Shown: piece by piece, positions 5,270-45,635 of the stretch
How positions within the stretch are numbered: the first letter of the stretch is position 1
Layout: every line of letters begins with the position of its first letter
Source of the DNA: a bacterium
GTDB lineage: Bacteria > UBP6 > UBA1177
Assembly: GCA_017961325.1 (NCBI GenBank)
Contig: JAGCXM010000015.1
Location: 9,408-73,407, forward strand
DNA length: 64,000 nucleotides
Reading direction: 5' to 3'
The notes under the pieces: model-generated
The model's database searches: none
Told to the model about the DNA's origin: nothing
What the model saw: the letters and a program-made list of their open reading frames with translations, nothing else
Translations under genes and position numbers: made by a program

Positions 5270-6184
5270 ATGGTAAATCTGGAATTGGAAATATCGAAAG
5301 ATTTTTTTGAGAAAGAAATCAGAAATAACTTTCCTGTAACCGAAGAAAGAAAGCAGATTTGGGCCGTAGAGCTGGATTTGCTTAACAAATTCGATTCAGT
5401 ATGCAAGAACCACAGCCTAAACTACTGCGTCGGCGCGGGAACCATGCTTGGAGCGGTGCGTCACAAAGGCTTTATCCCGTGGGATGACGACATAGACGTT
5501 TATATGCTGAGAGAAGATTACGACAGGTTTTGTCTGCTTCATGAAGAATTCAAGCATCCCTATTTTCTACAGAATGCATACAGCGAACCCAATATGCTGA
5601 AATCGTTCGTAAGGCTCAGGAACAGCTGCACAACGGGCTGCACGACTCAAGATATTCACAAACGGATCAACAAGGGGATTTTTATCGATATTTTTCCTAT
5701 TGACGGTGTTTCCGACAATGTCATACTTGATAAAATTCAAAAATTCGAAGTTTTCTGGTTGAAAAAGCTGTACTCGTTATACAACAGAAGCAGAATACCG
5801 CTCTACGGCAGTTTCTTTAGCAAGATATTCCAATTCGCAGTAATCGTATCAGGCAAATTATTTATCCGTGACCGCCTTAAACTCTTTGAAACCGGCGAAA
5901 AAGTCACAAAAAGGTATTCAAAACCGGATACGCTTTTTTGGGGCAACCGTTCCATAAATTTTGACTGTCCGAAATCCAGAAGACCTCTGAGCGATTATCA
6001 GAACGTGGTCCTCATGCCTTTCGAGATGCTCGAAGTCCCCGTGCCGAGCAATTACGATGCAATGCTTTCGCAACAATACGGCGATTACATGAAAATTCCT
6101 AAGAACAAAAATGAAAATTTACACGGAAAACTTATAATTTCCACCGAATGTGATTTTGATAATTTAATGAAGAGAGCAAAATGA
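5270..6184 (+). CDS. Second LicD-family phosphotransferase (paralogue)
   Basis: YCVGAGTMLGAVRHKGFIPWDDDIDVYM LicD signature. Confidence 0.7.
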   Translation: MVNLELEISKDFFEKEIRNNFPVTEERKQIWAVELDLLNKFDSVCKNHSLNYCVGAGTMLGAVRHKGFIPWDDDIDVYMLREDYDRFCLLHEEFKHPYFLQNAYSEPNMLKSFVRLRNSCTTGCTTQDIHKRINKGIFIDIFPIDGVSDNVILDKIQKFEVFWLKKLYSLYNRSRIPLYGSFFSKIFQFAVIVSGKLFIRDRLKLFETGEKVTKRYSKPDTLFWGNRSINFDCPKSRRPLSDYQNVVLMPFEMLEVPVPSNYDAMLSQQYGDYMKIPKNKNENLHGKLIISTECDFDNLMKRAK

Positions 6185-7911: not shown

Positions 7912-8872
7912 ACAAACAGAATACCGCTATAAGGCACAAATGAAAATATACACGATTTTTGATGATTTTGACGAAAAAGCCGTAAAAACAATAAAGGATG
8001 CCGGCGGAGAGCTGACAGTTCATCCGTACGGAACTCCGCGGCCCGATTCGATTCAAATGAAATCCATTCTGGAAGAATATGACTGCGTTATCATCGGCAC
8101 AACACAGAAGATAACGGAAGAGATGTTTGAGAATATCTCCCTACCCCGTCTGATTGCGACAGCTTCCGTCGGTCTTGATCATATCAAAATCCCCGAAGAC
8201 AAGAAAAGTCTCGTCAGCATCATCAATACGCCGAAAGCAAACGCACAGTCGGTTGCCGAATATACGATGGGATGCGCCCTCTACTGCTGCAAAAGACTAA
8301 CCGAAGGGAACATGCTTTACAGACATGGCAAAAACAATAAAAACCTGTTCCGGAAACCCGAAGATTTATCCGGAAAGATCATGGGAGTCATCGGCGCGGG
8401 AAATATTTCAGTACGCATTATGGAATACGCCAGATTCTTCGGAATGGAAGTTCTCTGTTGGACCAAAACACCGGAAAATCACAAAGATTTAGAGGAAAAA
8501 GGCATCAAGTTCGTCACTCTTGACGCACTCGCCGAAACGGCGGACGTGATTTCAGTGAATCTGCCGAACAATTCGGGTACGCAGCGACTGATTTCCTCCG
8601 GCATTGTCAAAAAAATGAAGGAAACGGCAATTTTCATAAGCGTTTCGAGACTGGAAACCATAGACATCGATGCCTTATTTGAAAAGGCCCTTAAGCATAA
8701 AAGCTTTTACGTCTGTCTCGATCTGGACATAGACGAAGGCGTCATAAAAAAGATTCCGGATCAGCCGAACGTTACGGTCACACCTCATACAGCCGGCGGC
8801 ACCGTCGAGACAAGAAAAAGAATGTTTAGGGAACTTGCCGAACAAATAACTGATATTATTAGAAAAAGTTAA
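7904..8872 (+). CDS. D-isomer-specific 2-hydroxyacid dehydrogenase family, NAD-binding
   Basis: GVIGAGNISVRIMEYARFFGMEV Rossmann motif and overall 2-HADH architecture. ATGA overlap with the upstream gene suggests translational coupling. Confidence 0.65.
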   Translation: MNEQTEYRYKAQMKIYTIFDDFDEKAVKTIKDAGGELTVHPYGTPRPDSIQMKSILEEYDCVIIGTTQKITEEMFENISLPRLIATASVGLDHIKIPEDKKSLVSIINTPKANAQSVAEYTMGCALYCCKRLTEGNMLYRHGKNNKNLFRKPEDLSGKIMGVIGAGNISVRIMEYARFFGMEVLCWTKTPENHKDLEEKGIKFVTLDALAETADVISVNLPNNSGTQRLISSGIVKKMKETAIFISVSRLETIDIDALFEKALKHKSFYVCLDLDIDEGVIKKIPDQPNVTVTPHTAGGTVETRKRMFRELAEQITDIIRKS

Positions 8873-27631: not shown

Positions 27632-30085
27632 TTAAAGAATCTTTTCGCTTTTCAGAAGACTCTCTTCATCGTATCCGGCAAGCTCTTTGCGGTAGCCGTT
27701 TTTGATTATGTGGAATTCTCCGGTGAAAGAGTCGAATTTTTTCATGACGCTTCCGAGTTCGGTCTGGTGTCTGATTGTCATTTCGAGAGTTTCATCATTA
27801 AAATCAAGCACTTCCAGGATTTCTTTTGCCGAATCGAAATCAGTTTTTTCAAAGAATTTCACGCGGTAGGTGCTTGTCGGAAGGGTTCTGAGGATCTTTT
27901 CGACTTTCTTTATCTTTTCGCGGTCGCATTTGGTGAAAGTGAGGAATTTTATTCCGGAATTTTCCAGAATTGAATTGAGTTTCGCCAGAGTTTCAGCCTC
28001 ATCGGTCTCTTCGGTGAGCCAGACCGTGCCGAATTCCTCGTCGACTTCGACTCCGACAGGTGCCGGAAACGCCAGATTGAAGCGCGGCATCGGGTGGAAA
28101 CCGTCGGAATAGAGGATCTGCAGGTCACTCAAAGTGAGCGCTTTGAAAAGGAACGAAACGAGATCCAGGTGCCCGATGCTTATCGAATTTCCGTGTTTCG
28201 AAAGAGAGAAGACATAAGGGAATGAGTTGTTTTTATTGTTCTTTTCGGGAATTTCAAAAGTCGCGTTCTCGTCAAGCGGCTCCCCCGTTCTGATCATCGG
28301 TTTGACCTCTTTGAAATCGCACGCGCCGCAGCCGTTGCACTTTCCGGTCTTCGCGCAGTCGGGAGTGACTTCGAAGTTGTATGCCTTTTCACGTTCGCTG
28401 AGGAGGAATTTCCTGTCGATCCTGAGGTCTATGTGCTCATAGGGAAGCGGTTTGTCCAGTGATTTCGGCAGATAAGTGCTTTCGGGGTCGATTCCCGCCG
28501 CCGCCATTCCCTGATCCCAGAGAACGGGGTCGAAACTGACGTCTTCGGTCTGGAGCCCTTTCATGTTTTTCGCAACGAATTCAATGACTTTGCCGTATTC
28601 GCGCCCGGCACGACTCAAATATCCTTCGACCGTGCTCACTTCCTGATCGTGCCATGCGAGTTTGATATTTTTTATGCCGCGCAGACTTTCGATGATTATC
28701 TTCTGCTTTGCCTTTATCTCCGCCGGACTCGACATTTTTTCCCACTGGAACGGAGTGAAGGGCTGCGGCACGAAAGTCGAGAAACTGACGCTTATCATCG
28801 CCTTTTTCCCGAATCTTTTTATATAGTTGCTCATTCTTTTGACGAGCTGCACCGTCTCGACGATGTCCCTTTCCTCTTCAAGCGGAAGCCCCAGCATGAA
28901 GTAGAGTTTGACCGCCTGCCAGCCGTTTGAAAATATCGTGTGGATCGCGTTGATGAGGTCTTCTTCGCTGTTGCCTTTGTTGATGACGCGGCGCAGTCTT
29001 TCGCTTCCCGATTCGGGAGCCAGCGTGAAGCCGACTTTTCTCCCTTTTCTGATGACCTGCGCGATCTTCGGAGTGATCGTTTCTGTCCTGAGACTCGGCA
29101 GAGAGACCGAGATCTTGCGACTGTAGCGGCTGTACGAACGGACCAAAATGTCTTCGATCTCGCTGTGGTCTGCCGCCGAAAGCGAGAGGAAACCCGCCTC
29201 GTCGTAACCCGAAGTCCTGACTACCCTGTCCAGAATTTCGCAGACATTTTCGGCACTTTTCTCTCTGTGCGGCCGGTAGAACATTCCCGCCATGCAGAAG
29301 CGGCAGCCTCTGGTGCAGCCTCGCATTATCTCGATCGTGAAGCGGTCGTGGATCGTCCTCATCGCAAATATCGGAGCGTCGAAAAGCGAGTCTGGATCGT
29401 AGTTGAGATCCGGAAGTATCGACCTTCTCGCGACCTGCCCCGAAAGAGAGCCGTCCTCGTTTATTTTGAGATCTTTACCGTTCTGAACCGACGGAATATA
29501 GACCGAAGGGATCTTCGCAAACGCCTCGAGACGCGCCTTTTTCCCTTTCACATTTTCTAAAATGTCCATGAATTCTTCAGCCGCCGGCTCGAACTCTCCG
29601 ATCGAAACAGCGTCGATGAAATCGGCCATCGGTTCCGGGTTGCACATGACCGGCCCGCCAGACCAGATTATCGGATAACTCTCTGAATTCATTCTGTCTT
29701 TCGAATGTATTGGAATCCCTGCGATCTCAAGGATCTTCAGAAAATCTGGGTACTGCAGCTGATACTGGAACGACACAGCGATAATGTCAAAATCGCGGTA
29801 GTTCACCCCGTGCATCATCGAAGTCAGACCGCCGCTTTTTGCAGCGATTTCAAATATATCCTTCTGCGGAGAGAAGCCGAAATCGACCAGAAATCCTCTC
29901 CTGTGGAAAAGCGAATAGAGGATCTTCACCCCGGTGTGGCTCTGTGCCATCTCGAAAAGATCAGGAAAAAGTATCAGTATTTTCGGCTTATTAGGGTCAG
30001 TTTTGACCTTAACAGTCTCGATAAACGGCGCGAAGTAGCGCCCCGGCTTTTCGATCCTGCGCAGAAAAGAAGTTACAAGTTTCAA
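27632..30085 (-). CDS. Radical SAM protein of the TIGR03960 family fused to a C-terminal DUF2344 domain
   Basis: CTRGCRFCMAG radical-SAM cysteine motif in the middle. B12-binding-like N-terminal region. C-terminal 220 aa resemble DUF2344 (GHLDLVSFLFKALTLS). Confidence 0.7.
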   Translation of the reverse strand: MKLVTSFLRRIEKPGRYFAPFIETVKVKTDPNKPKILILFPDLFEMAQSHTGVKILYSLFHRRGFLVDFGFSPQKDIFEIAAKSGGLTSMMHGVNYRDFDIIAVSFQYQLQYPDFLKILEIAGIPIHSKDRMNSESYPIIWSGGPVMCNPEPMADFIDAVSIGEFEPAAEEFMDILENVKGKKARLEAFAKIPSVYIPSVQNGKDLKINEDGSLSGQVARRSILPDLNYDPDSLFDAPIFAMRTIHDRFTIEIMRGCTRGCRFCMAGMFYRPHREKSAENVCEILDRVVRTSGYDEAGFLSLSAADHSEIEDILVRSYSRYSRKISVSLPSLRTETITPKIAQVIRKGRKVGFTLAPESGSERLRRVINKGNSEEDLINAIHTIFSNGWQAVKLYFMLGLPLEEERDIVETVQLVKRMSNYIKRFGKKAMISVSFSTFVPQPFTPFQWEKMSSPAEIKAKQKIIIESLRGIKNIKLAWHDQEVSTVEGYLSRAGREYGKVIEFVAKNMKGLQTEDVSFDPVLWDQGMAAAGIDPESTYLPKSLDKPLPYEHIDLRIDRKFLLSEREKAYNFEVTPDCAKTGKCNGCGACDFKEVKPMIRTGEPLDENATFEIPEKNNKNNSFPYVFSLSKHGNSISIGHLDLVSFLFKALTLSDLQILYSDGFHPMPRFNLAFPAPVGVEVDEEFGTVWLTEETDEAETLAKLNSILENSGIKFLTFTKCDREKIKKVEKILRTLPTSTYRVKFFEKTDFDSAKEILEVLDFNDETLEMTIRHQTELGSVMKKFDSFTGEFHIIKNGYRKELAGYDEESLLKSEKIL

Positions 30086-30223
30086 AATATTCTCCTAAAA
30101 CATGAATGTTTTCAGCAATCTACTTAATTTCTTCAATTAAAAGAACTCTTGTCAAAAGACGGCGATACTTTAAGGAAAATTGTGGAAAATGCAAGAGTTC
30201 AGGGGCGGACAGGCCGTATTCAG

Positions 30224-30287
30224 CTCAACGAATACGAACACTCATTTTGAGGTCAAAAATTTTGACCTCAAAAAAACACGTTATTCG
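30224..30287. repeat. Repeat family A, copy 1 (about 64 nt; contains the perfect palindrome TTGAGGTCAAAAATTTTGACCTCAA)
   Basis: Near-identical to 31995-32057. Internal 12-nt inverted arms. Directly followed by a 29-nt partial copy of repeat B (30289-30317). Confidence 0.85.
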
Positions 30288-30369
30288 CCGTTTAAAGCGG
30301 TAAATTTTGTGATTTTGCAATTTGAGGAAGTGTCAAGAAAAAGTTAACTTCGACTATCTTAGATTGTTT

Positions 30370-30690
30370 TTATCTGCCGCTATGACAAATGACATCGTAA
30401 CTACCATTTTGACTCCTGTCAGCTTGGGAGACATATACTCTACAATCCTCGCTCACAGAAACCGCAAGACCTTCAAGAGTTATAAAAGTAGCATAAGGAC
30501 ATTTCAGATTTCTGGAAGCAAGCGTTCTTGCATTTGCTTTCAGTTCGTCAGCAGTAGCCAGATACCGATTGATAGAACGGCAATAATCCTTTGCATCTTG
30601 AAATGACATGCGAGTTCCTGGAATCGGGGATGCCGCGGTAAGAATTGCAAAGCAGAGAATAAAGAAAGAAAGCAAAAAAAATTTTTTCAT
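30370..30690 (-). CDS. Small secreted Cys-containing protein, DUF1566/Lcl-like fragment (paralogue 1)
   Basis: Start reassigned to MKKFFLL (signal peptide) with a GGAG RBS. YCRSIN..LATADEL resembles the DUF1566 motif. Paralogous to 30743-31051. Confidence 0.55.
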   Translation of the reverse strand: MKKFFLLSFFILCFAILTAASPIPGTRMSFQDAKDYCRSINRYLATADELKANARTLASRNLKCPYATFITLEGLAVSVSEDCRVYVSQADRSQNGSYDVICHSGR

Positions 30691-30742
30691 GTCAAATCTC
30701 CGTAAAAAATTATCATCATCAAATAATACCTTTTGAGATCTT

Positions 30743-31051
30743 CTATCTTCCGATGCAGACAGCCTGATAACTAGAACCTTCTTTTCCTGTTCCAAAAGCA
30801 CTCACAACACAATTACTTCCGAAAGAAACGGTTTGATTGTTTTCGCCTATAAAAGTCTGTGGAGCACAATTAGTCATTCCAGCTGCTTTCATAAGCGATA
30901 CCATCTCGTAGGTATATGCCAACCGCATATTGATACTGCGGCAATAATTTACAGCCTGTTGATATGTAACAGCTCTGGGAACAGGTTTTACAGCTGCCGA
31001 AAGTGTTACAAAACTGAAAACCAAAACAAAAACCAAGAAAAATTTTTTCAT
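30743..31051 (-). CDS. Small secreted Cys-containing protein (paralogue 2; tandem duplicate)
   Basis: MKKFFLVFVL signal peptide. Shares YCRSIN and a C-terminal SY.V.C..GR with paralogue 1. Upstream 30 nt nearly identical to that of paralogue 1 (catgtcaaatctcc). Confidence 0.55.
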   Translation of the reverse strand: MKKFFLVFVLVFSFVTLSAAVKPVPRAVTYQQAVNYCRSINMRLAYTYEMVSLMKAAGMTNCAPQTFIGENNQTVSFGSNCVVSAFGTGKEGSSYQAVCIGR

Positions 31052-31096
31052 GTCAAATCTCCTTAAAATAAGTTGTTAAAAATTCACCTTTTCAGG

Positions 31097-31492
31097 CTAT
31101 CTTACAAAAAACACAAAATGTTCTAAGTCAACGCAGCTTGGACCTTCATCACCTTCAACGAAACCTACTACCCACCTGCAGTCAGGGCGGCAGTTTTCAT
31201 CTGAAGAAGACCAAAAAGTTTTGGAAAGATCCAAACCGATGCAAACTTCTCGAATTTGATACAGATATTTAAGTTCTTCTTTTGTCGGAAGCCGCCAGTC
31301 AGAAAATCCGCCTATCTTAGAATTTTTAGCACACACTTCGGCAGCCTCCCAAGACATTTTGCCGTCGATTTTCGTAATCATTTTGATTTTGCCGATAGCT
31401 TCATTCAGTTCAATGTAATCGCCATGATCTTCAAAAATGTTTTTCACTATAACCTCAATTTGCAAATGAACAAAAAACCGATTTTCGGACAC
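31097..31492 (-). CDS. DUF1566-domain protein (Lcl C-terminal-like), no obvious signal peptide
   Basis: WEAAEVCAKNSKIGGFSDWRLPTKEELKYLYQ is the canonical DUF1566 'WRLPT..EL' motif. Confidence 0.6.
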   Translation of the reverse strand: MSENRFFVHLQIEVIVKNIFEDHGDYIELNEAIGKIKMITKIDGKMSWEAAEVCAKNSKIGGFSDWRLPTKEELKYLYQIREVCIGLDLSKTFWSSSDENCRPDCRWVVGFVEGDEGPSCVDLEHFVFFVR

Positions 31493-31623
31493 CTATTTTT
31501 TTGTGTCCCAAACCTATGGTCAGCATTTTAATCTTAAATTTACTAACAGTCAAGAAAATAATTACTGGTGGTCAAAAATTATTTTCTGTATGTGATATAT
31601 TAAAAAAAGGAGGTGTTTTGAGT

Positions 31624-31956
31624 ATGGATGACAAAACACTTGGCAAACGGGTAAAAGCATTAAGGCGTAAAGCCGGAATAACGCAGCTTGACCTCGCATG
31701 TCGGGTAAATATCAGCGAAAGCTATATCGCGTTGATAGAAGCAGACAAACGAAAACCGGGAATGGATATAATCTCTACTTTGGCAAACGAATTTCATGTC
31801 TCCGTTGACTATCTTTTAAGCGGCAAAATATCAGAAGAAGACAATCTCATGCTCAAAGAATGGACATCTCTTATAAAGGAAAGACCTCAAAAAGATATCG
31901 AAAGCGCACTTAAAATCGTCCGTACTTTTTTTGAATGTGTGGACAGCAAAAAATAA
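31624..31956 (+). CDS. XRE-family helix-turn-helix transcriptional regulator
   Basis: LRRKAGITQLDLACRVNISESYIALIE HTH_3 motif. Start moved to the ATG preceded by AGGAGG (the ORF-track 5' extension lacks an RBS). Confidence 0.7.
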   Translation: MDDKTLGKRVKALRRKAGITQLDLACRVNISESYIALIEADKRKPGMDIISTLANEFHVSVDYLLSGKISEEDNLMLKEWTSLIKERPQKDIESALKIVRTFFECVDSKK

Positions 31957-31994
31957 TTTTCAGAAAGTTTCTCAGGCTAAATTTTATGTTCCGG

Positions 31995-32057
31995 CTCAAC
32001 AAATACCAATACTCATTTTGAGGTCAAAAATTTTGACCACAAAAAACACGTTATTCG
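31995..32057. repeat. Repeat family A, copy 2
   Basis: About 90% identical to 30224-30287 including the palindromic core. Confidence 0.85.
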
Positions 32058-32117
32058 GAAAGGCCTTCCTTTCACAAACTACAAAATCAAGCTGAAAATG
32101 CTTTGAACAGATTGCAG

Positions 32118-32157
32118 ATTTTATACATTTTCGGAATCCGATTCCGAATTTGTATAA
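32118..32157. repeat. Repeat family C, copy 1 (40 nt; contains the palindrome TTCGGAATCCGATTCCGAA)
   Basis: Direct repeat of 33395-33434. The pair flanks the AAA ATPase gene. Confidence 0.8.
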
Positions 32158-32169
32158 AAATTTTGTCTT

Positions 32170-33384
32170 TTAGATTGCGTCAATCGGAATCAAGCTGTTC
32201 ATTCCATCAATAGGCAAGGTTGAACCTGTCATGCAGAGGATACAGCCTTTGCCAGCTTCAAAATTATTTAAATACCTGATTACGCTGAAATTTTTCAACA
32301 CTTCCCTGCCGGGATTTGCTGATTTTTTGATTTCAATCGGGAAAATTTTTCCGTTTTGGACGATAAGCAGATCTATTTCCTTTGAATTGTTGTCGCGATA
32401 GTAGCAAAGACGACTTCTAATGTCTATTCCTTTATTTGCGTAACTTTTTATTATCTCTGAAACGACATAAGTTTCGAACATCGCACCGGACATTGCCGAA
32501 AGTTCAAGTGCCCTCGGGTTGTTCCAAAAACTCAGATAACATGCAAGCCCTGTGTCCATAAAGTAAAGTTTCGGCCGTTTGACAATTCTTTTGACAGTGT
32601 TTGCCGAAAAGGGTGAAAGGAGAACAACTATCCCCGATGAAACAAGAACGGAAAGCCATTTGTCAGCAGTTTTTGAATCGATTCCAATCTCTTTCGAAAT
32701 ATCCGAAAGGTTAAGTTCCTGAGCTGTTCTTGCAGCAGCACACGATATGAATTTCAGGAATTTTTCTTCATCCTTTATGTTTATGAGATCGCGGATATCG
32801 CGCTCCAGATAAGTCTGCATATATGAACCGAAGTAGTCTTCCGGCAAAATTTCCCTGTCTACGGTAAGTTTGGGCATCCCGCCTCTGTAAATTTGCCCGA
32901 AAACTTCCGAAATTGTTCTTTTCTGTTCAAAAAACGGCACGTCATCAGGCAGAAAAGCCTTGGATTCCCTCCCGATTATTTCCGAATAACTCAGCGAAAA
33001 TAAAGAAAAAACTGCGACTCTTCCTGCAAGAGACTCGCTCACGTTCTTCATTGCGTGGAACATCTGGGAACCTGTCAGAAAATACTGTCCTGAAGCATTA
33101 TTTTTATCAACATTTATCTTGATAAAGGGCAGAAGTTCCGGCGCATATTGGATTTCGTCGATTATCAAAGGTGTTTTATACTGCTGGAGAAACAGCTCAG
33201 GGTCGCTCTTTGCAAGCTGTTTTAAAGCGGGATAGTCCAAAGTCACATAGTTTATTCCGCTTCTTTTTTCTGCGAACTCTCTGAGCAGAGTGGTCTTTCC
33301 GGTTTGTCTCGCTCCACAGACCATGATTACCGGGAAATGCTTTGAAAGTTCTTCAATTCTTGAAATTGCTGTCCGTTCGATCAT
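32170..33384 (-). CDS. AAA-family ATPase with C-terminal DUF4143 domain
   Basis: Walker A GARQTGKTTL and Walker B LLIIDEIQ. Typical AAA_14/DUF4143 architecture. Start reassigned to MIERTAIS, preceded by a GGAGGAA RBS. Confidence 0.7.
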   Translation of the reverse strand: MIERTAISRIEELSKHFPVIMVCGARQTGKTTLLREFAEKRSGINYVTLDYPALKQLAKSDPELFLQQYKTPLIIDEIQYAPELLPFIKINVDKNNASGQYFLTGSQMFHAMKNVSESLAGRVAVFSLFSLSYSEIIGRESKAFLPDDVPFFEQKRTISEVFGQIYRGGMPKLTVDREILPEDYFGSYMQTYLERDIRDLINIKDEEKFLKFISCAAARTAQELNLSDISKEIGIDSKTADKWLSVLVSSGIVVLLSPFSANTVKRIVKRPKLYFMDTGLACYLSFWNNPRALELSAMSGAMFETYVVSEIIKSYANKGIDIRSRLCYYRDNNSKEIDLLIVQNGKIFPIEIKKSANPGREVLKNFSVIRYLNNFEAGKGCILCMTGSTLPIDGMNSLIPIDAI

Positions 33385-33394
33385 GCTTCCTCCG

Positions 33395-33434
33395 ATTTTA
33401 TACATTTTCGGAATCCAATTCCGAATTTTTATAA
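33395..33434. repeat. Repeat family C, copy 2
   Basis: ATTTTATACATTTTCGGAATCC(A/G)ATTCCGAATTT(T/G)TATAA, matching 32118-32157. Confidence 0.8.
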
Positions 33435-33546
33435 TATTCAGCTTTTGAGAAAATGACAGAAAAATTTTCTTTTCCAATCTAAACAGGGGAAAATCTGCTG
33501 ATTTTTGAGGCCTGAATACGAAAAATCCAACTTGGAAATTTTTAGT

Positions 33547-33630
33547 TTACCACGGAACCGAGATAAGTCCGGTAAAACCCATGAATGCAAGTGAGAAAAG
33601 ACCTGCTGTGACGAGCGCAGTCGCCTTGCC
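33547..33630 (-). pseudogene. Orphan duplicated 3' terminus of rnfA (encodes ...[27 protein letters not shown])
   Basis: About 80% nt identity to 38572-38660. Translation matches the last 27 aa of RnfA. No upstream ORF continues it. Confidence 0.8.
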
Positions 33631-33728
33631 TCAAAACCATTCCCCGGAAATCCCGTTGCAGGCTTTTCAATAGTTTAAGATCGGATTTTCGACAGATCAT
33701 GCCGTTTAAAGCGGTAAATTTTGTGATT
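33629..33728. repeat. Repeat family B, copy 1 (about 100 nt)
   Basis: About 90% identical to 34599-34699. A partial copy lies at 30289-30317. Confidence 0.85.
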
Positions 33729-33743
33729 TTTGAAAAAAAAGGA

Positions 33744-34037
33744 TCAGCTGTTTTGCGGAAGAAATTCTATTTTGAGTTTCATCCCCATCCCAATAGCCAG
33801 ACGCTGTAAAGTTCTAAGAGACGGATTTGCATTTCCTTTTTCAATTTTGCTGATGTCACCCTGCGCGATTCCGGTGCGCTCTGACAGTTCTTTTTGTGTA
33901 AGCCCTGACTGTTTGCGTGCATCAATGATTGCCTGAATCACGGCGTGTTCCGGCTGAAGCAGCTCGTATTCAGCCTTAAACTCGGGATTTTTCAGCTGTT
34001 CTTTGAGAAAATCATTAAACTTTTCGCCCATTTTCAT
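33744..34037 (-). CDS. higA: HigA-like XRE-family antitoxin
   Basis: HTH (LTQKELSERTGIAQGDISKIEKG). Overlaps and follows a HigB/Gp49-family toxin gene. Confidence 0.7.
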   Translation of the reverse strand: MKMGEKFNDFLKEQLKNPEFKAEYELLQPEHAVIQAIIDARKQSGLTQKELSERTGIAQGDISKIEKGNANPSLRTLQRLAIGMGMKLKIEFLPQNS

Positions 34038-34386
34038 CTCCGTTTCTACGCAAGTAATCGGCTCGGTATCTTTTTGCTTTTTCTATTTCTGCGACAGGAG
34101 TTTTCTGCGTTTTCTTGATAAAACCGTGAGTCAGCACGATCCGCCTGTCAACATAAAAGAAATAGAAAACACGCATTATATTTGTTTCGGCACGGGCTCT
34201 CAATTCAAAAATCCCGTCAGACAGATATTTCGAATAAGGCTCCCGTAAGTCGCAGCCGTTATCCTGCAGTATCGAAATCATGTCCGCCATTTTAGCCCTC
34301 ATTTTTACATCAAGTGACAAAAGAAATTCCTTTGCCGGCTGGCTGCCGTTCTCTTTTTCATAAAACTCGACTTCAAAACTTGTCAC
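34015..34386 (-). CDS. higB: HigB/RelE-superfamily toxin (phage Gp49-like, PF05973-type)
   Basis: 123 aa. Sequence pattern ...FELRARAETNIMRVFYFFYVDRRIVLTHGFIKKTQKTP of the Gp49/HigB family. Toxin-first order with an overlapping HTH antitoxin. Confidence 0.65.
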   Translation of the reverse strand: MTSFEVEFYEKENGSQPAKEFLLSLDVKMRAKMADMISILQDNGCDLREPYSKYLSDGIFELRARAETNIMRVFYFFYVDRRIVLTHGFIKKTQKTPVAEIEKAKRYRADYLRRNGDENGRKV

Positions 34387-34598
34387 AGAACCACTCCAAA
34401 AACTGTTTTATAGGATTTATCCTATTTTGTCAACATTTTTTACTTCAAAATCTCAATTTAATCTCAACAAAGAACAATTAAGATGCATTATTTAAATAAT
34501 CAGAATTTAAAATCAAGTTTTCGATTGTAGCAAGTAGAAAAGTTTAACTTTGCGGCAAACATGAATTTTCGTGAAGTGCAAAAAAGATGCTTTTATCG

Positions 34599-34699
34599 CC
34601 TCAAAACCATTCCCCGGAAATCCCGTTGCAAGCTTTTCCGAGAGTTTAAGATCGGATTTTCGACAAATCATGCCGCTTAAAGCGGTAAGTTTTGTGATT
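34599..34699. repeat. Repeat family B, copy 2
   Basis: CCTCAAAACCATTCCCCGGAAATCCCGTTGCA...CATGCCGCTTAAAGCGGTAAGTTTTGTGATT, matching 33629-33728. Confidence 0.85.
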
Positions 34700-34733
34700 C
34701 TGTGGAAATTTGACGGGTTAAACGACTTTTTGC

Positions 34734-35870
34734 TTACTTTTCTTTAGGCGGATTATCTTTCAAAAATAAAAGACCTTTTGCATCAAGCCTGTCGTCATTG
34801 TCAAACGGAATCCCTGCTTCTTTCTTTTTACGCAGAAGTTCTTGCGTGTAATACGCAAGTACAGATATTTGAATTCTGAAAAGCTCGCACATCGTTTTTT
34901 CACGTGTTGCAATATTGCCTGTATCACGGTAGTTGAAACCGTAACAAGTCGGGCAGATATTCAAAAGAGAACAATCAGCACAGAAAGGATCTGTATTGAC
35001 TTCTTGAGAAGAAAAATCCATCTTTTCTTGTAATTCAGCAGCCTTTTGAGTTCCCAAAACCATTGGAGTGAAAAGATGGCATGGGTAAGTTTTTCCGTCT
35101 ACATCGTAAGTTATCATATGGGTTCCGGTGCCGCACCATTTTTGCTTGGGATTACGCTCAATTGTCAAAAGTCCTATTCTCCTTGCAAACATAGGTATTG
35201 TTTCAACATTTGGATGCTCCAAATAATAATCTGCCAAAATCATTAACTGCTTACGAAATTCTTTTTTATCTTCTTCAGACCAAACTTGACCGTATCCACA
35301 GTTTGCTGAAAAATTCTTAGCCCCCTTTTCTATCAAATAAATGACTCCTGAAGCTAAATTTTTCAATGAGTCAGGAGATATAGTCATCTTAGCTCCTTGT
35401 TCAGGATAAGTTTTAAGGAAAAAATCCAAATCGACTTTACTAGCACAATTTGTTCTGTTCATATCCTGCGATTCCTCAGTTCCATCGTAGCTTATACCAA
35501 CAACAAAACGCTCTTTATGCTTAACTAGCCATTGTTTGATTTCATCAGTAATAAGTGTTCCGTTAGTAGTCGTGAAAAAGATATACGGAACCTCCCATTT
35601 CTGCGACCAAGTCCACTCCATAATCTCTTTCATCAAATCGAACTTTACAAATGGTTCACCGCCCATGAAATCGAACTCAATTTCATCAAAATCCGGCGAG
35701 TTTTTAACAAACTCAAACTCTTTTGTGATAATTTCTTTAGCCAATTCAAGAAGCATATAATGTTCATCTTTATATTTTTCGTAACAATAAACACAATTCA
35801 AATTACAGGAATGAGTTATAACCAAAGTACAACTCCTATGCCTTGACGAACTATTTTTATTTGAACTCAT
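34734..35870 (-). CDS. Radical SAM enzyme with C-terminal SPASM domain (RiPP peptide-modifying maturase candidate)
   Basis: CNLNCVYC radical-SAM motif near the N-terminus. C-terminal Cys clusters WCGTG...C...CADCSLLNICPTCYGFNY typical of the SPASM/twitch auxiliary Fe-S domain. Confidence 0.75.
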   Translation of the reverse strand: MSSNKNSSSRHRSCTLVITHSCNLNCVYCYEKYKDEHYMLLELAKEIITKEFEFVKNSPDFDEIEFDFMGGEPFVKFDLMKEIMEWTWSQKWEVPYIFFTTTNGTLITDEIKQWLVKHKERFVVGISYDGTEESQDMNRTNCASKVDLDFFLKTYPEQGAKMTISPDSLKNLASGVIYLIEKGAKNFSANCGYGQVWSEEDKKEFRKQLMILADYYLEHPNVETIPMFARRIGLLTIERNPKQKWCGTGTHMITYDVDGKTYPCHLFTPMVLGTQKAAELQEKMDFSSQEVNTDPFCADCSLLNICPTCYGFNYRDTGNIATREKTMCELFRIQISVLAYYTQELLRKKKEAGIPFDNDDRLDAKGLLFLKDNPPKEK

Positions 35871-35943
35871 TTACTAACCTCTGAATTTTTACAAAAAGAG
35901 AGAGCCAAAGGTCTCTCAGAAAAAAGTGATTAAACAAACAAAA

Positions 35944-36138
35944 CTAACTCGGATGATTTAAATCCCAAGTATTCGAAAACCTGCAAGAATCTAAACATTC
36001 TCCTTGGCAAGTTCCTGCACAACCACCATAACAATCATCGCAAGCATAGGATTGCTGGTTCCCAACAGATTCATAAGATACCGAACCAGATGAAACAACT
36101 GAGTTCAGCAACTCGACATCGTAATTTACATTACTCAT
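35944..36138 (-). CDS. 64-aa precursor peptide with a six-Cys core (CDDCYGGCAGTCQGECLDSC), ranthipeptide/SCIFF-like
   Basis: Start set at the ATG preceded by a GGAGGG RBS. Leader-like N-terminal half, then a Cx2Cx3Cx3Cx3Cx3C core. Lies 73 nt upstream of the rSAM/SPASM gene on the same strand, with a hairpin in between. Confidence 0.6.
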   Translation of the reverse strand: MSNVNYDVELLNSVVSSGSVSYESVGNQQSYACDDCYGGCAGTCQGECLDSCRFSNTWDLNHPS

Positions 36139-36313
36139 CTTTCCCTCCATGAAAAAAAATTAATAAAACAAAAAAACGGTCTTTTGACCAAGATTACAAA
36201 ACAACAGTATTTCAAAAATTTTCAATTGTCAAATTTATCAATGCTTTTGTATTTTGCAAATACTTTGATATTGCTTTAGTTTACTTTGGTTGAACGAGCT
36301 AAGAGGTGAAATC

Positions 36314-36589
36314 ATGTTCGGAGACAGAGTAAAGCAGGTGCGTGAAGCTCATAATTACAGCCAAGTGCAGCTTGCGGCCATACTTCATGTCTCAAGACAG
36401 ACAGTCTCAAACTGGGAAAACAACAACATAATGCCGTCAATCGAAATGCTCATCAAACTTGCCGACCTGTTCGGTGTTTCAACTGATTTTCTGCTGGAGC
36501 GCGACAACCGCCGCTCTTTGGATATCACCGGTCTGACAGAGATCCAGTGCGCTCACCTTAATCTTATAATTCAGGATATTTTGCAGTAA
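36314..36589 (+). CDS. XRE-family HTH regulator, divergent from the RiPP pair
   Basis: QVQLAAILHVSRQTVSNWENNN HTH motif. Start at the ATG with an AGAGGTGA RBS. Confidence 0.7.
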   Translation: MFGDRVKQVREAHNYSQVQLAAILHVSRQTVSNWENNNIMPSIEMLIKLADLFGVSTDFLLERDNRRSLDITGLTEIQCAHLNLIIQDILQ

Positions 36590-36818
36590 ATTCAGTGACT
36601 TAATCCCGTGACATTCTAATAAGAATTGGGAGGCTGTCGCAAATTGCAACAAACTGCAAGCATACAGAGGCTGAGACTTTGACAAAATCGCTTGATATTA
36701 ACATTAGATCTTTATCAAGAAATAATTTAAAATACAACAATGAGGCATGAAATAAAACTTGATTTTTGGAGAAATTATTGTTTTGTATTTCGCGAAACTT
36801 TTCTTTGGAGTTTGAAAT

Positions 36819-37808
36819 ATGGAAAACGAAGTGATTTTATACACAGATGAAAACGGAAAAACAAATGTTTCTGTGCGTTTTGCCGATGAAGATGTATGGG
36901 TAACACAAGCTCAGCTTGCCGAGATTTACAACACGACACAGCAGAATATCAGCCTGCACATTGATAATATTTACAGAGATGATGAACTGCCGGAAACGGC
37001 AACTCACAAGGATTTCTTGTTAGTTCAAAAAGAAGGCACTCGCAATGTAAAGCGTAATATTTCACATTACAATCTCGATATCATTATTGCTCTCGGCTAT
37101 CGAGTTCAGTCGGATGTTGCAGTGCGCTTCCGCCGTTGGGCGACTCAAAGACTTCACGAGTATATTCAGAAAGGCTTTGTTATGGATGACGAGCGGCTCA
37201 AGCAGGGGCGGAACCGTTATTTTAGGGAACTTCTGCAGAGAATACGCGATATCCGTTCAAGCGAGCGCAATTTTTATCAGCAGGTTACTGATATTTATGC
37301 TACTGCGACAGATTACGATCCGCGCTCGAAAACAACGCTTCATTTTTTCGCAACAGTGCAGAATAAACTTCATTATGCTGTACATGAACATACAGCGGCG
37401 GAATTGATTTATGAGCGGGTTGACAGTGAAAGGCCTTTTGTCGGCATGACAAATTTTAAGGGGGATTATGTTACAAAAGATGATGTGAAAATAGCGAAAA
37501 ACTACCTTTCTGAAGTCGAATTGCAGCGTCTGAATCTTCTCGTTTCGGAATTCTTGGATTTTGCGGAATTTCAGGCACTTGAAGAAAAACCCATGAAAAT
37601 GCAGGATTGGATCAAAGCTCTTGACAATCAGATAATAGCACATCAGCGCAAAATTCTTGAGGGAAAAGGCTCTGTCAGCCACGATCAGGCAATGAGAAAA
37701 GCTGAAAAGGAATACGAACTTTTCCGTAAGAAACAGCTGGCAAATCTTAAAAGTGACTTCGATTTATTTTTGAAAGACGTAAAAAGTCTAGAGAAATCCG
37801 AGAAATAA
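36819..37808 (+). CDS. RhuM-family virulence-associated protein
   Basis: N-terminus ILYTDENGKTNVSVRFADEDVWVTQAQLAEIY and overall about 330 aa match the RhuM family (PF13310). Confidence 0.65.
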   Translation: MENEVILYTDENGKTNVSVRFADEDVWVTQAQLAEIYNTTQQNISLHIDNIYRDDELPETATHKDFLLVQKEGTRNVKRNISHYNLDIIIALGYRVQSDVAVRFRRWATQRLHEYIQKGFVMDDERLKQGRNRYFRELLQRIRDIRSSERNFYQQVTDIYATATDYDPRSKTTLHFFATVQNKLHYAVHEHTAAELIYERVDSERPFVGMTNFKGDYVTKDDVKIAKNYLSEVELQRLNLLVSEFLDFAEFQALEEKPMKMQDWIKALDNQIIAHQRKILEGKGSVSHDQAMRKAEKEYELFRKKQLANLKSDFDLFLKDVKSLEKSEK

Positions 37809-37952
37809 CCTGCCTCAACCAGTTATCAAGTCGGCCAACCCATGAATGCAGGTGCGTGAGGCACATAATTACAGTCAGGTGCGACTTGCAACTCGGCTCC
37901 ATGTTTCCAAACAGGCAGTCTCGAACTGGGAAAACAACAACATTATGCCGTC
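37803..37952. pseudogene. Junction remnant: a degenerate third copy of the rnfA 3' terminus (37803-37848) joined to a truncated duplicate of the XRE gene from 36334-36441 (37849-37952)
   Basis: ...AAGTCGGCCAACCCATGAATGCA matches the rnfA-end repeat. It is followed immediately by an approximately 85%-identical copy of the HTH gene, starting internally at ...VREAHNYSQV. Confidence 0.7.
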
Positions 37953-37967
37953 AATCGAAGTCGGAAG

Positions 37968-38495
37968 TCAGATCAAAAGCATCGAACATCCGCCGGATTT
38001 GCCTTCATCCCCAGCGCCGTCGGAAGTGTTGTCGTCAGCTGCATCGACCTCCGGATAATCGGAGTCGTCGGTTTCCCAGCCTTCGACAGGTTCGGTTCCG
38101 CACTCTTCCGCCAAGACCGATCCGCATCCGTTTTCGCTGAAAGTGCCGGTTCCGGTCTTTAGATCTCCGACTCCGTAACACCTGCAGGCATAGTTGCCGC
38201 CGTATGCTACTGTACACTTGCCGGCCTCATTCCGACAACGGATCCGCGTATTTTTGCAGAGCTTTTCGATCTTCGCCATGCAAATTTCATTGCTAAGCGA
38301 AGTCGTTTCAGGCTGGACATTTTCATCGGAAACATATCCTTCGCCGTCCCGGCATTCACACTCCGAACGGATCAATCCGTCAGTCAGCGTAAGAGAGCAC
38401 TTTCCGAGTTCCGATTCACACGAAATACTTTTCTCTTCCGCAAAAAGAGCCGTTGCAACAGCAAAGACGGCAGCTAAAACAACTATCTTTTTCAT
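37968..38495 (-). CDS. Secreted Cys-rich protein with an acidic C-terminal tail; function unknown
   Basis: Signal peptide MKKIVVLAAVFAVATALFA. About 14 Cys in CxC/CxxC-like spacing. D/E-rich C-terminus. Good start context. Confidence 0.55.
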   Translation of the reverse strand: MKKIVVLAAVFAVATALFAEEKSISCESELGKCSLTLTDGLIRSECECRDGEGYVSDENVQPETTSLSNEICMAKIEKLCKNTRIRCRNEAGKCTVAYGGNYACRCYGVGDLKTGTGTFSENGCGSVLAEECGTEPVEGWETDDSDYPEVDAADDNTSDGAGDEGKSGGCSMLLI

Positions 38496-38571
38496 ATAAC
38501 CTCCTGACTCAATTACAGCTTTTGTTTCTGTGGGTTAAAGCCTGAAGATATTTTTAGACTTGTTGCTGATT

Positions 38572-43173: not shown

Positions 43174-43201
43174 TTGACACTCCGTTTTTTAAGCCTATAT
43201 T
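43174..43201 (+). promoter_or_regulatory. Sigma-70-type promoter upstream of the riboswitch
   Basis: TTGACA, 16 nt spacer, TATATT. Confidence 0.5.
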
Positions 43202-43207
43202 GGCGCG

Positions 43208-43370
43208 ATTTGTTTCTGCGGAAATCGGTGAAAATCCGATGCTGTCCCGCAACCGTGAAGCTTTGAGCGAAGCCGGATACACAGACTCAAATCGAGGTAA
43301 TGAGTACCCCGAGGAGGGAAAAATTGCGATTATCAAAGGTTTGCACAATTTTTCCATTTTATTCACTTCC
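43208..43370 (+). ncRNA. Cobalamin (B12) riboswitch in the 5' leader of the lipoprotein gene
   Basis: Core AATCGGTGAAAATCCGATGCTGTCCCGCAACCGTGAAGC matches the conserved cobalamin-riboswitch segment (compare B. subtilis GGUGCAAAUCCUGCGCUGUCCCGCAACUGUAAGC). Lies between a promoter and the RBS. Confidence 0.7.
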
Positions 43371-43391
43371 CGAAATTTCATGGAGGAGAAA

Positions 43392-45635
43392 ATGAAAAAA
43401 CCTTTATCTTTCCTGTTTATTGTTTTTGTACTTATCTTTGCGGTTTCCTGCGGAAGCGGCAAAAAAGACGGCAGCGAACCTACTGACACGGACAACGACA
43501 CTGCGGACACTGAAAATCCGGACGGTGACGATGCAAACTCAGGCGACACTCCGGATCCTGGTGATTCCGGAAACGATTCCGGAGATTCGGAAAACAACGA
43601 CGATGCCGATTCGGGCGATTCCGGAAATGATGACGACACTGATTCCGGCGACACGGAGGAACCTGCCGAGACTCACGAACTTATCGGGAAATATGCCGAC
43701 AACTGGGGCGGAAGCCACATCATTTCCAATACCGCATGGTTTCAGCCATCTTCATACGGCGACACCCTTTTCCGCATCACGCAGTTCGACAATGAAAACG
43801 ATTTCATAATTGCGCAGAACGATGCCGAAAAATCATGGTTCCCGGAAAAATGGAGCAGATTCGACTACGTTATTGACGGCGGAAAAATCTACCTCTGCCA
43901 GATCGCTTTCGACAAAGAAACAGAAGATGATGCCCTCGCCGCTACGGATGCCGACAGAACCGATCTTACAGACAAAGGCTGCAACGGTTCTCCGTGGAGC
44001 GAACTTACCGAAACCGTTGAAGAATCCATCGGCAAAGACGATGAAAGAATCGCAGCATGGGCAACAGGCTACGAAAATTACAAAGTCGGCGAAGGCGTTA
44101 CTGAAGAGTGGCAGACCCCCGAAAAAGCTCTCGGAAAGGCCGTGGGAGATTCTTACGACGTTGTAGTTCTGGGTGACGGCGGCAGCATAGTTCTCACTTT
44201 CGCAAAACCGATAACGGACGGAGACGGCGCTGATTTCGCAGTTTTTGAAAACAGCTTCAACGAATACTTCCTTGAACTCGGAACAGTCGAAGTAAGCAGC
44301 GACGGCGAACATTTCGCAGCTTTCGACAACTACTATCTTGGCACTGAAAAAATAGGCTCTACAGGCAGTCACGACGCGCGTCTTATCTGGGGATTCGCAG
44401 GAAAATTCAAACAGGGCGAAGGAACGATGTTCGACCTCGCCGAACTCGCGGACAAACCCGAAGTTGCTGACGGAACGGTCAATCTCAAAGCGATCACCCA
44501 CGTTAAAATTGCCGATGTCATCGGCGACGGATCGCAGAAGGATTCCATAGGTAACACGATTTATGATCCGTATCCTACGGGAGAAATAAGCGCCGGTTTC
44601 GACCTTGACGCGGTCGCAGTCATAAACGAAGTTAAAGAACCTCTTGAAATTTCAGGAAAATGGTATGCCTATCAGTTCGGACAGTACGACACGATTTCAA
44701 ACAAAGGCTGGAGTCAGCTCAACATGACTTACGGCGGCAATTACAACTACGAGGTTTTTTACAAAATAGTCAAATACGACAATGAAAACGATACCTTCAT
44801 CGCCTACAAGGAAGACACGAAATACAGCAAGGTAAATTATGCTTTGACAAAAGACGGCGGGAAGGAAATCCTTTACCTCTGTGAAATCGCATTCAACAAG
44901 GAAACGGCTGAAGATGCCGAAGCAGCTGACGATGCGGACAAAACCGATCTCAGCGGAAACACCTGCGGAGGTTTTTCATGGAATATATACATCCGTGCCG
45001 GAACAGAGAGTAATGATGCAAAATACGATCTGCATGCCGAAAGGGAAAAGGCCGCAAACGCGGATGACGACTGCATCGACGTCTGGGCAAGCGGATACGA
45101 TTCCTTCAAGCCCGGCTCAGACGCAGACACTGGCACGAACGATCCGAAAGCTGCTGAAGGAAAAGCGGACGGCAAATTCGTTTCGCTCGGAAAGGGCGGC
45201 AGCATCGTCGTAACTTTCACCGATCCGCTGCCAATTGACGGCGGTGAAACGGGCGAAGTCGGAACGGACTTCATAATTTTTGCAAACAGTGCTGACAGCC
45301 ACGCCCTTGCAAAAGTCGAAGTAAGCAGCGACGGTGAAAATTTCGTCGCATTCGACACGCACTTTCTCGGCATGAAAGCAGGCGGATTCGACGAAACGCA
45401 GATTTTCGGATTTGCAGGAAAATTCGGCAACGATAAAGGAACGAAATTCGATCTTCAGGATCTTTCACTCAAACCGGAAGTCAAAAACGGAAAAGTCGAT
45501 CTCTCGGCAGTCACGATCGTCAGAATCACCGATATTCCAGGAGACGGTTCAGAGCTCGACTCCCACGGAAATCCGATATTCTACCCCTATCCTGAAGGCG
45601 GATTCGAACTTGACGCAGCAGCTGCAGTCAAATAA
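43392..45635 (+). CDS. Lipoprotein with an acidic D/G/S-rich linker and two tandem homologous domains of about 330 aa each; function unknown, under B12-riboswitch control
   Basis: Lipobox FAVSC. Start at the ATG with a GGAGGAG RBS. Internal duplication (LCQIAFDKETEDDA.../LCEIAFNKETAEDA... and DFAVFENS...VEVSSDGEHF.../DFIIFANS...VEVSSDGENF...). Confidence 0.65.
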   Translation: MKKPLSFLFIVFVLIFAVSCGSGKKDGSEPTDTDNDTADTENPDGDDANSGDTPDPGDSGNDSGDSENNDDADSGDSGNDDDTDSGDTEEPAETHELIGKYADNWGGSHIISNTAWFQPSSYGDTLFRITQFDNENDFIIAQNDAEKSWFPEKWSRFDYVIDGGKIYLCQIAFDKETEDDALAATDADRTDLTDKGCNGSPWSELTETVEESIGKDDERIAAWATGYENYKVGEGVTEEWQTPEKALGKAVGDSYDVVVLGDGGSIVLTFAKPITDGDGADFAVFENSFNEYFLELGTVEVSSDGEHFAAFDNYYLGTEKIGSTGSHDARLIWGFAGKFKQGEGTMFDLAELADKPEVADGTVNLKAITHVKIADVIGDGSQKDSIGNTIYDPYPTGEISAGFDLDAVAVINEVKEPLEISGKWYAYQFGQYDTISNKGWSQLNMTYGGNYNYEVFYKIVKYDNENDTFIAYKEDTKYSKVNYALTKDGGKEILYLCEIAFNKETAEDAEAADDADKTDLSGNTCGGFSWNIYIRAGTESNDAKYDLHAEREKAANADDDCIDVWASGYDSFKPGSDADTGTNDPKAAEGKADGKFVSLGKGGSIVVTFTDPLPIDGGETGEVGTDFIIFANSADSHALAKVEVSSDGENFVAFDTHFLGMKAGGFDETQIFGFAGKFGNDKGTKFDLQDLSLKPEVKNGKVDLSAVTIVRITDIPGDGSELDSHGNPIFYPYPEGGFELDAAAAVK

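Follow-up and report, generated by a model that had tools for sequence, protein, structure and literature searches.

In bacteria and phages, the scaffold classically used to vary ligand binding is the C-type-lectin-like domain, as seen in Mtd, TvpA, intimin, Lcl and the fibre tips of Bdellovibrio, and DUF1566 is a recurrent target of diversity-generating retroelements (DGRs). In Bdellovibrio bacteriovorus, the C-terminal tip domain of Bd2740 (PDB 8oks) belongs to mosaic adhesive trimer fibres (PMC10769870). Here, we describe a locus located at positions 30370-31956 of a stretch of 64,000 nucleotides (nt) of contig JAGCXM010000015.1 (assembly GCA_017961325.1; GTDB lineage UBP6, UBA1177), which we call the window throughout. 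The locus contains three genes on the minus strand, named A, B and C, and a divergent gene that encodes a helix-turn-helix (HTH) regulator of the XRE family (Table 1), a gene structure that had been recognized in a first-pass annotation of the window and that was confirmed in our analysis. We assign a probability of about 0.5 to the interpretation that this XRE-controlled operon exports two small binding proteins of a predicted disulfide-stabilized lectin fold into the cell envelope, and that these proteins are varied by gene exchange.

The mobility of the cassette is the strongest new result of this analysis and is well supported. The comparison with related contigs, designated L001, L002 and so on, delimits a segment that is 99.2% identical to L001, L002, L003, L005 and L006 and 98.6% identical to L004 (98.6-99.7% for the other three of the eight contigs), whereas the flanks of the same contigs show 85-93% identity, i.e., 84.8% for the neighbouring radical-SAM gene and 92-93% on the Rnf side. 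The cassette was also found at different positions of a hypervariable island. In the contigs mentioned above, it abuts a border gene encoding a protein of 175 amino acids (aa); in the window, the two are separated by 6 kb of other cargo (31973-37969). The neighbourhood in L096 is quite different, containing genes for a glycosyltransferase, DapH and Abi_2. There, the segment that comprises A and B (window positions 30348-31067) shows 100% DNA identity over 720 nt, while the C gene shows 47-65% identity in DNA and 49% in protein, and the XRE gene 75-92%. A protein identical to A is encoded on L001-L008 and L096, and the copy in L087 differs at 3 of 106 residues. Thus, the mobile module proposed in the first-pass annotation is well founded.

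The cassette is in addition a mosaic. In L087, the A gene and the palindrome downstream of it are 98% identical to those of the window, C is 78% identical, and B has been replaced by an unrelated 89-aa member of the family, the breakpoints being located at the conserved 5' ends. The module of L092 has three small genes, and that of L012 has one small gene and a 167-aa lipoprotein-like Lcl_C protein. In L011, the XRE gene diverges from two small exported members of the family and an unrelated exported protein, with no C. A comparison of copy number, which had been recommended at the outset, yielded 1 to 3 small genes per module, and the arrangement in which an XRE gene diverges from C and 1-3 small exported proteins is kept in five variants. 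C is usually but not always present, and it is exchanged independently of A and B. The Lcl_C protein of L012, encoded by the last gene of its module (6007-6510), scores 55 bits and has a lipoprotein-like leader (…FLSIAC); therefore, the same slot can be filled either by a full-size exported DUF1566 protein or by mini lectin-fold proteins. Across the family members, the segment formed by the ribosome site and the signal peptide is conserved at a mean of 66% (ungapped) versus 46% (aligned) for the mature part, and this segment may serve as a recombination handle.

Table 1. Features of the XRE-controlled cassette and its borders in the window. A slash marks the cleavage-type site of a signal peptide.
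Feature	Position	Strand	Description
Left flanking repeat	30223..30286	+	Contains palindrome TTTTGAGGTCAAAAATTTTGACCTCAAAA
Boundary box	30287..30316	+	GCCGTTTAAAGCGGTAAATTTTGTGATTTT, 30 nt, just downstream of gene A
Cassette by comparison	30292..31972		1681 bp with A, B, C and XRE
Gene A	30370..30690	-	106 aa, predicted exported mini C-type-lectin-like protein; open reading frame with ribosome site GGAG 7 bases before ATG; putative signal peptide MKKFFLLSFFILCFAILTA/AS; four cysteines (C37, C64, C83, C102)
Gene B	30743..31051	-	102 aa, predicted exported mini C-type-lectin-like protein; putative signal peptide ...TLSA/AV; cysteines C37, C62, C81, C99
Gene C	31097..31447	-	116 aa, Lcl_C/DUF1566, without signal peptide; GTG start; GAGG at 31456-31453
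Candidate C-B-A promoter	31525..31553	-	TTGACT, 17 nt, TAAAAT
Two direct repeats	31540-31553 and 31564-31577	+	TTACYNNYRGTCAA, between the divergent genes, overlapping the cargo -35
XRE-family HTH regulator	31624..31956	+	110 aa; ATG at 31624; AGGAGG at 31608-31613; divergent from C-B-A
Right flanking repeat	31994..32057	+	Direct copy of the left repeat, 92% over 53 nt

A and B are small, predicted secreted paralogues, as had been proposed, with 34% identity (BLASTP, E 8e-15), a shared type of leader, a YCRSIN motif and four aligned cysteines in common. Both proteins begin with MKKFF, and after MKK there are about 15 hydrophobic residues, followed by a cleavage-type motif (LTA/A or LSA/A), and were judged by inspection to be Sec signal peptides. 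The C-terminal pattern SY.V.C..GR that had been attributed to both proteins is exact in A, but B fits it only with a shift of one residue (SYQAVCIGR). Similarly, the near-identical 5' untranslated regions that had been described turned out to be about 25 identical bases (GGAGATTTGAC ATG AAAAAATTTTT), which extend only from the ribosome site through codon five. This identity sits in a 76-nt stretch that is 78% identical and codes mostly for the signal peptide, and the conserved 5' end is found family-wide, in a small family with about 20 clusters in a set of 1.84 billion proteins. A recent tandem duplication, the origin initially proposed for the pair, was rejected because of the 34% identity and because each paralogue has its own relatives, of A type or of B type, in other contigs. 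Concerning C, its N-terminus is acidic and non-hydrophobic by inspection, and the most likely start codon is a GTG (31447), which has GAGG 5 bases upstream and is the start also used in the gene calls on related contigs.

The protein encoded by C, which does contain the signature WRLPTKEEL that had been noticed, is a true DUF1566 protein. It matches Pfam PF07603 (Lcl_C) with 43.3 bits (E 5e-11; gathering cut-off 34.9) over profile positions 20-117 of 117, and its relatives form ten clusters of 116-121 aa, all of them with PF07603. The first-pass annotation had spoken of three DUF1566-like proteins and had suggested a comparison with PF07603 and TIGR02145 (Fibrobacter paralogous domain). Of these proteins, A and B do not match PF07603 even at E up to 1, nor any NCBIfam model, and TIGR02145 is absent from the NCBIfam matches of A, B and C (E up to 1). 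The only hits of A and B, all of them below threshold, are Xlink, FGE-sulfatase and UL45, families that we take to share the C-type-lectin-like fold. Against Xlink (PF00193, cut-off 27) A and B reach 17.4 and 16.5 bits, respectively, covering only profile positions 11-48. When the A/B family was aligned with the C family using hhalign, a probability of 67% (E 5e-5) was obtained, restricted to a 33-column a1-b2-a2 motif. A and B share a superfamily with DUF1566, yet they are not DUF1566 proteins and constitute a previously unnamed family.

A lectin-like fold, which had been put forward as a point to be checked by structure prediction, was obtained for B. The input alignment of this model contained A, B and four database relatives, and the model has a predicted local distance difference test (pLDDT) score of 82.7, rising to about 90 over the mature part, with a topology b-a1-b-a2 followed by four strands. 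It has a C-terminal antiparallel sheet and is superposable on solved C-type-lectin-like domains. A and B are predicted to be minimal free-standing domains of about 80 aa with a C-type-lectin-like fold, B on the basis of the model and A by homology. The structures nearest to B in the fold search are adhesive tip or receptor domains and are compact forms independent of Ca2+, and the search against viral predicted structures returned mostly lectin-like matches, which are weak. At the level of sequence alone, DEC-205, the aggrecan Link module and intimin are also detected with a profile built from 14 members of the family. The mature A/B domain (about 80 aa) shows no long-loop region and no EPN/QPD or WND Ca2+/sugar motifs in its sequence. 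C37 and C99 (B numbering) are invariant in 14 of 14 sequences, and C62 and C81 behave as a pair, both being retained, displaced or absent together. In the model of B, a1 contains C37, the last strand contains C99, and C62 and C81 precede strands 65-68 and 83-88. These positions fit the canonical disulfides of the fold (a1 to last strand; b3 to the loop after b4), and two putative disulfides can be proposed.

The family is confined to one lineage of uncultured bacteria from the ruminant gut. When 5.8 billion proteins were searched with a word index, five clusters were detected, all metagenomic, and an exhaustive HMMER search of 1.84 billion representatives detected 38 proteins at E up to 0.001. 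About 15-20 of these 38 are exported proteins of 82-106 aa with a leader of the type MKKFLL..FSFATLSA, and the others are large multi-repeat proteins, whose matches are short and lie mostly in the N-terminal motif. The neighbouring gene, which encodes a radical-SAM protein of 817 aa, places the window among uncultured ruminant-gut metagenome-assembled genomes from reindeer, buffalo, goat, yak and red deer, the records of which are labelled UBP6 or 'uncultured Spirochaetales'. A pattern scan for A/B relatives in 185,579 species-representative genomes found nothing. However, a tblastn search of loci fetched via the neighbouring radical-SAM gene detected divergent A/B relatives in L012 and L011, and therefore the pattern scan was insensitive. 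In phages, a tblastn search of 50,697 records detected no homologue of C or of mature B, and A and B have no match in PHROGs.

The XRE protein matches HTH_19 (45 bits) and HTH_3 (44 bits) in Pfam. Below threshold it resembles the RstR and DicA repressors in NCBIfam and HTH_VI/capH in PADLOC, and it shows likeness to phage and prophage repressors as well. By analogy with RstR, DicA, CapH and the phage repressors, XRE may be expected to repress the cargo promoter. The candidate promoter of C-B-A (Table 1) is the best sigma-70-like match in the region (10/12), its hexamers are conserved in L020, L017 and L096, and the DNA shared with L020 stops at 31525, which is the last base of the -10 hexamer; its promoter function is deduced from these sequence features. 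The two direct repeats are candidate operators to which XRE might bind, with RGTCAA cores conserved in the four aligned intergenic regions of the XRE110 type. An 11-nt perfect inverted repeat (31553-31563/31577-31587) was also considered as operator and discarded, since it is not conserved in other XRE110 intergenic regions.

The regulator had been regarded as dedicated to this cluster, but the comparison of contigs contradicts this. In L020, the XRE of the window (99% aa identity) precedes, together with the intergenic promoter region, a different cargo, a radical-SAM/peptide cluster, and L017 has the same XRE at 93%. This cargo (4173-7588 in L020; also present in L017) comprises a 79-aa open reading frame (ORF) containing cysteines, a PDDEXK_5 (PD-(D/E)XK) protein, a radical-SAM/SPASM/PqqD enzyme and an amidohydrolase. 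A second type of XRE (91-99 aa) faces lectin-fold cargo in L087, L092, L012 and L011, and a unit of this second type that is present in the window (36190-36617, 88% identical) faces a gene for a 68-aa Cys-rich peptide and a radical-SAM gene. Thus, the regulator is not dedicated, because XRE types 1 and 2 each pair with both cargo types; all four combinations of the two XRE-plus-promoter units with the two unrelated cargo types exist, and the regulators are interchangeable. The second XRE cassette of the window, at 34734-36617, contains the XRE91-type gene (36290-36589, plus strand), the 68-aa peptide gene (35944-36150, minus strand) and the radical-SAM gene (34734-35870, minus strand; 30.8 bits), and its probable product is a modified peptide of ribosomal origin.

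The cluster lies, as had been noted, between two copies of a palindromic repeat. This flanking repeat has 53-64 nt with a 29-nt palindrome, and it is present in only two copies in the window, with a chance expectation of 0. It folds as a 13-bp hairpin with a z of -4.2, while other junction repeats fold no better than shuffles. The left copy is part of a conserved flank beside the 817-aa radical-SAM gene in L015, L017 and L087. The 29-nt palindrome was discarded as an intrinsic terminator, since it has a T-run before it and an A-run after it on both strands, a non-canonical form; we leave it as a candidate protein-binding or recombination site. The boundary box GCCGTTTAAAGCGGTAAATTTTGTGATTTT recurs at 33701-33730 and 34672-34701, in each case just downstream of another cargo unit of the minus strand, and matches to it are located at other cassette boundaries in L001, L002, L017 and L020; within the island, this box may function in recombination or in insulation. 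Two of its copies are preceded by a further 68-nt repeat, in the repeated segments 33633-33728 and 34604-34699. Phase variation had also been suggested, but no evidence for it was obtained: the flanking repeats are direct, no invertible segment or simple-sequence tract was seen, and the ORFs inspected in 30000-38500 include no recombinase gene. An integron with attC sites was rejected too, given that those ORFs include no integrase-like one (an ORF of 329 aa is RhuM) and that the flanking repeat is a simple 13-bp hairpin. A DGR was likewise rejected, there being no template/variable repeat pair and none at the 3' ends of A, B and C; no reverse-transcriptase-like ORF was seen in the surrounding island, for which no systematic scan for reverse transcriptase was made.

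The island lies between the Rnf operon and the radical-SAM gene and encodes a DUF4143 ATPase (PADLOC PDC-S01), a Gp49/HTH toxin-antitoxin pair and RhuM (PDC-S05); in the relatives it also contains genes for MNT/HepT, RelB/ParE, PIN, AbiEii, Abi_2 and SLFN-AlbA_2. In PADLOC-DB 2.0, A, B and C match no family, and only XRE has matches, to generic HTH models. A 41-nt palindromic repeat (32117-32157 and 33394-33434, 95% identical) brackets the DUF4143/AAA_14 ATPase gene (32170-33477) in a cassette-like manner. The 175-aa border gene (37968-38495, minus strand) encodes an exported Cys-rich protein with no Pfam match, conserved at 93-94% aa identity at the Rnf-side border in L012 and L015. Beside this gene, a 115-nt sequence (37845-37959) is a copy (83%) of the XRE91-type 5' part (36331-36445) and looks like the truncated remnant of an earlier cassette. 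L015 retains only the 3' half of an XRE110 gene (8296-8488, residues 53-110). Further away, at 43220-43280 on the plus strand, the window contains a partial cobalamin riboswitch aptamer (Rfam RF00174, 32.7 bits versus 31.5; model positions 47-167), just after the genes for tRNA-Lys and tRNA-Glu and at the start of an 811-aa ORF (43200-45635).

In the interpretation that we prefer, the locus would be an expression cassette that is self-contained, is exchanged horizontally and resides in a hypervariable island of this uncultured bacterium of the ruminant gut. In the cassette, an XRE-type repressor and a divergent promoter would control the three-gene operon C-B-A. C would stay in the cytoplasm, and A and B would leave it by the Sec pathway, each of them maturing to a domain of about 80 residues. 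Mature B would adopt a minimal C-type-lectin-like fold with two disulfides in the canonical pattern, like the Link module or the intimin tip. Both proteins would act as ligand-binding proteins of the periplasm or the cell surface, and their ligand could come from the host, plant material, another microbe or a phage. Changes in specificity would come from the exchange of entire small genes and not from point mutations, through recombination in the conserved ribosome-site and signal-peptide segment common to all family members. Several points weigh against this interpretation. The alignment behind the model of B has only six sequences, and the structure prediction of C (pLDDT 46) is too poor for use. 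C has no signal peptide, which leaves its tie to the exported proteins unexplained, and it is missing in L011. Moreover, the neighbours are toxin-antitoxin and candidate defence genes, and the same regulator units can carry a radical-SAM/peptide cluster instead; therefore, a role in microbial conflict fits at least as well as one in adhesion.

A conflict role would take a concrete form if A and B, in the periplasm, blocked phage receptor-binding or ejection proteins or the periplasm-acting toxins of competitors, with C as partner or sensor and the variants being traded in an arms race. Such an envelope defence or immunity module is possible, if on the unlikely side. The island is rich in toxin-antitoxin pairs and candidate defence genes, XRE resembles capH, HTH_VI and prophage repressors, and cargo turnover is rapid, with identical segments swept across diverged backgrounds. 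In addition, small exported paralogues that form arrays and have conserved leaders may be likened to the arrays of orphan immunity genes known from gut bacteria. Nevertheless, the proteins match no PADLOC model, the phage records gave no homologue of C or mature B, no effector enzyme is present, the island location is circumstantial, and we know of no defence or immunity protein with a C-type-lectin-like fold. A more far-reaching version, which is speculative and rather improbable, holds that the whole arrangement is a plug-and-play conflict locus of portable XRE-plus-promoter units and swappable cargos, in which the mini C-type-lectin proteins would be a new class of envelope defence or immunity proteins that neutralize phage or competitor proteins in the periplasm and whose variants are traded by recombination at the conserved leaders; if true, it would parallel the diversification of this fold by DGRs, with the swapping of genes as the source of variation.

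A and B might instead be released onto other cells as bacteriocin-like or signalling effectors, with C as their cytoplasmic immunity or chaperone partner. We find this quite doubtful, although both proteins are small and polymorphic, are exported and have paired cysteines, five of the six variants contain C together with the small genes, and radical-SAM/Cys-rich-peptide clusters, typically loci for antimicrobial peptides, are the other cargo driven by these regulator units. The absence of C from L011 argues against it, as does the fact that neither a dedicated exporter nor a processing protease nor an immunity-like membrane protein was found, and structurally the nearest matches are to adhesive tip or receptor domains and not to toxins. 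The original proposal of a recently duplicated pair of DUF1566 adhesins, forming a phase-variable surface module with a dedicated regulator, drew on the tandem paralogues with a shared start region, the flanking repeats and the adjacent HTH gene. It is largely refuted by the divergence of A and B, which have their own relatives elsewhere and no PF07603 match, by the direct orientation of the repeats with no invertase or simple-sequence tract seen, and by a regulator shared with unrelated cargo, and we consider it very improbable. That A and B are chance ORFs could be argued from their lack of matches to any curated family, but both have strong ribosome sites, their conservation extends over more than 10 contigs and includes divergent relatives in which the Cys pattern is retained, and a confident fold of a known superfamily is predicted; the probability of this explanation is negligible.

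Nothing in this locus overturns the current understanding, and the lectin-fold scaffold itself was already known; what is new is an unnamed minimal lectin-fold family in a new modular arrangement. The free pairing of two XRE-plus-promoter units with two unrelated cargo types provides a tidy example of modular island evolution. If binding partners are found, A and B would offer a simple system to study how gut bacteria vary their envelope recognition proteins, and would add a Pfam-type family.

Compared with the Lcl C-terminal domain/DUF1566 proteins, i.e., Lcl of Legionella, the Lsa25-type lipoproteins of Leptospira and the DGR targets, mature A and B have about 80 aa versus the 117 positions of the model and lack the DWRLP signature, and the described DUF1566 adhesins are surface proteins, whereas C has no export signal. 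The Link modules (PF00193) of TSG-6, CD44, LYVE-1 and aggrecan G1 are animal, hyaluronan-binding domains, and A and B, which score below the cut-off, are not members of this family. The tip domain of Bd2740 shares 11% sequence identity and sits at the end of a 627-aa trimeric fibre, while A and B stand alone, each as an 80-aa domain preceded by a signal peptide. Likewise, the lectin-like domains of intimin and invasin terminate large outer-membrane adhesins, whereas A and B are small and soluble. The DGR variable proteins, such as Mtd of Bordetella phage, TvpA of Treponema and the DUF1566 and FGE-sulfatase targets, use the same scaffold where diversity of ligand binding is wanted; in contrast to DGR diversification, the diversity described here arises by exchange of whole paralogous genes, with no template/variable repeat pair. 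With about 80 residues and a signal peptide of their own, A and B would be the smallest free-standing bacterial form of this scaffold, which seems to be diversified here by whole-gene exchange in a mobile, repressor-controlled cassette.

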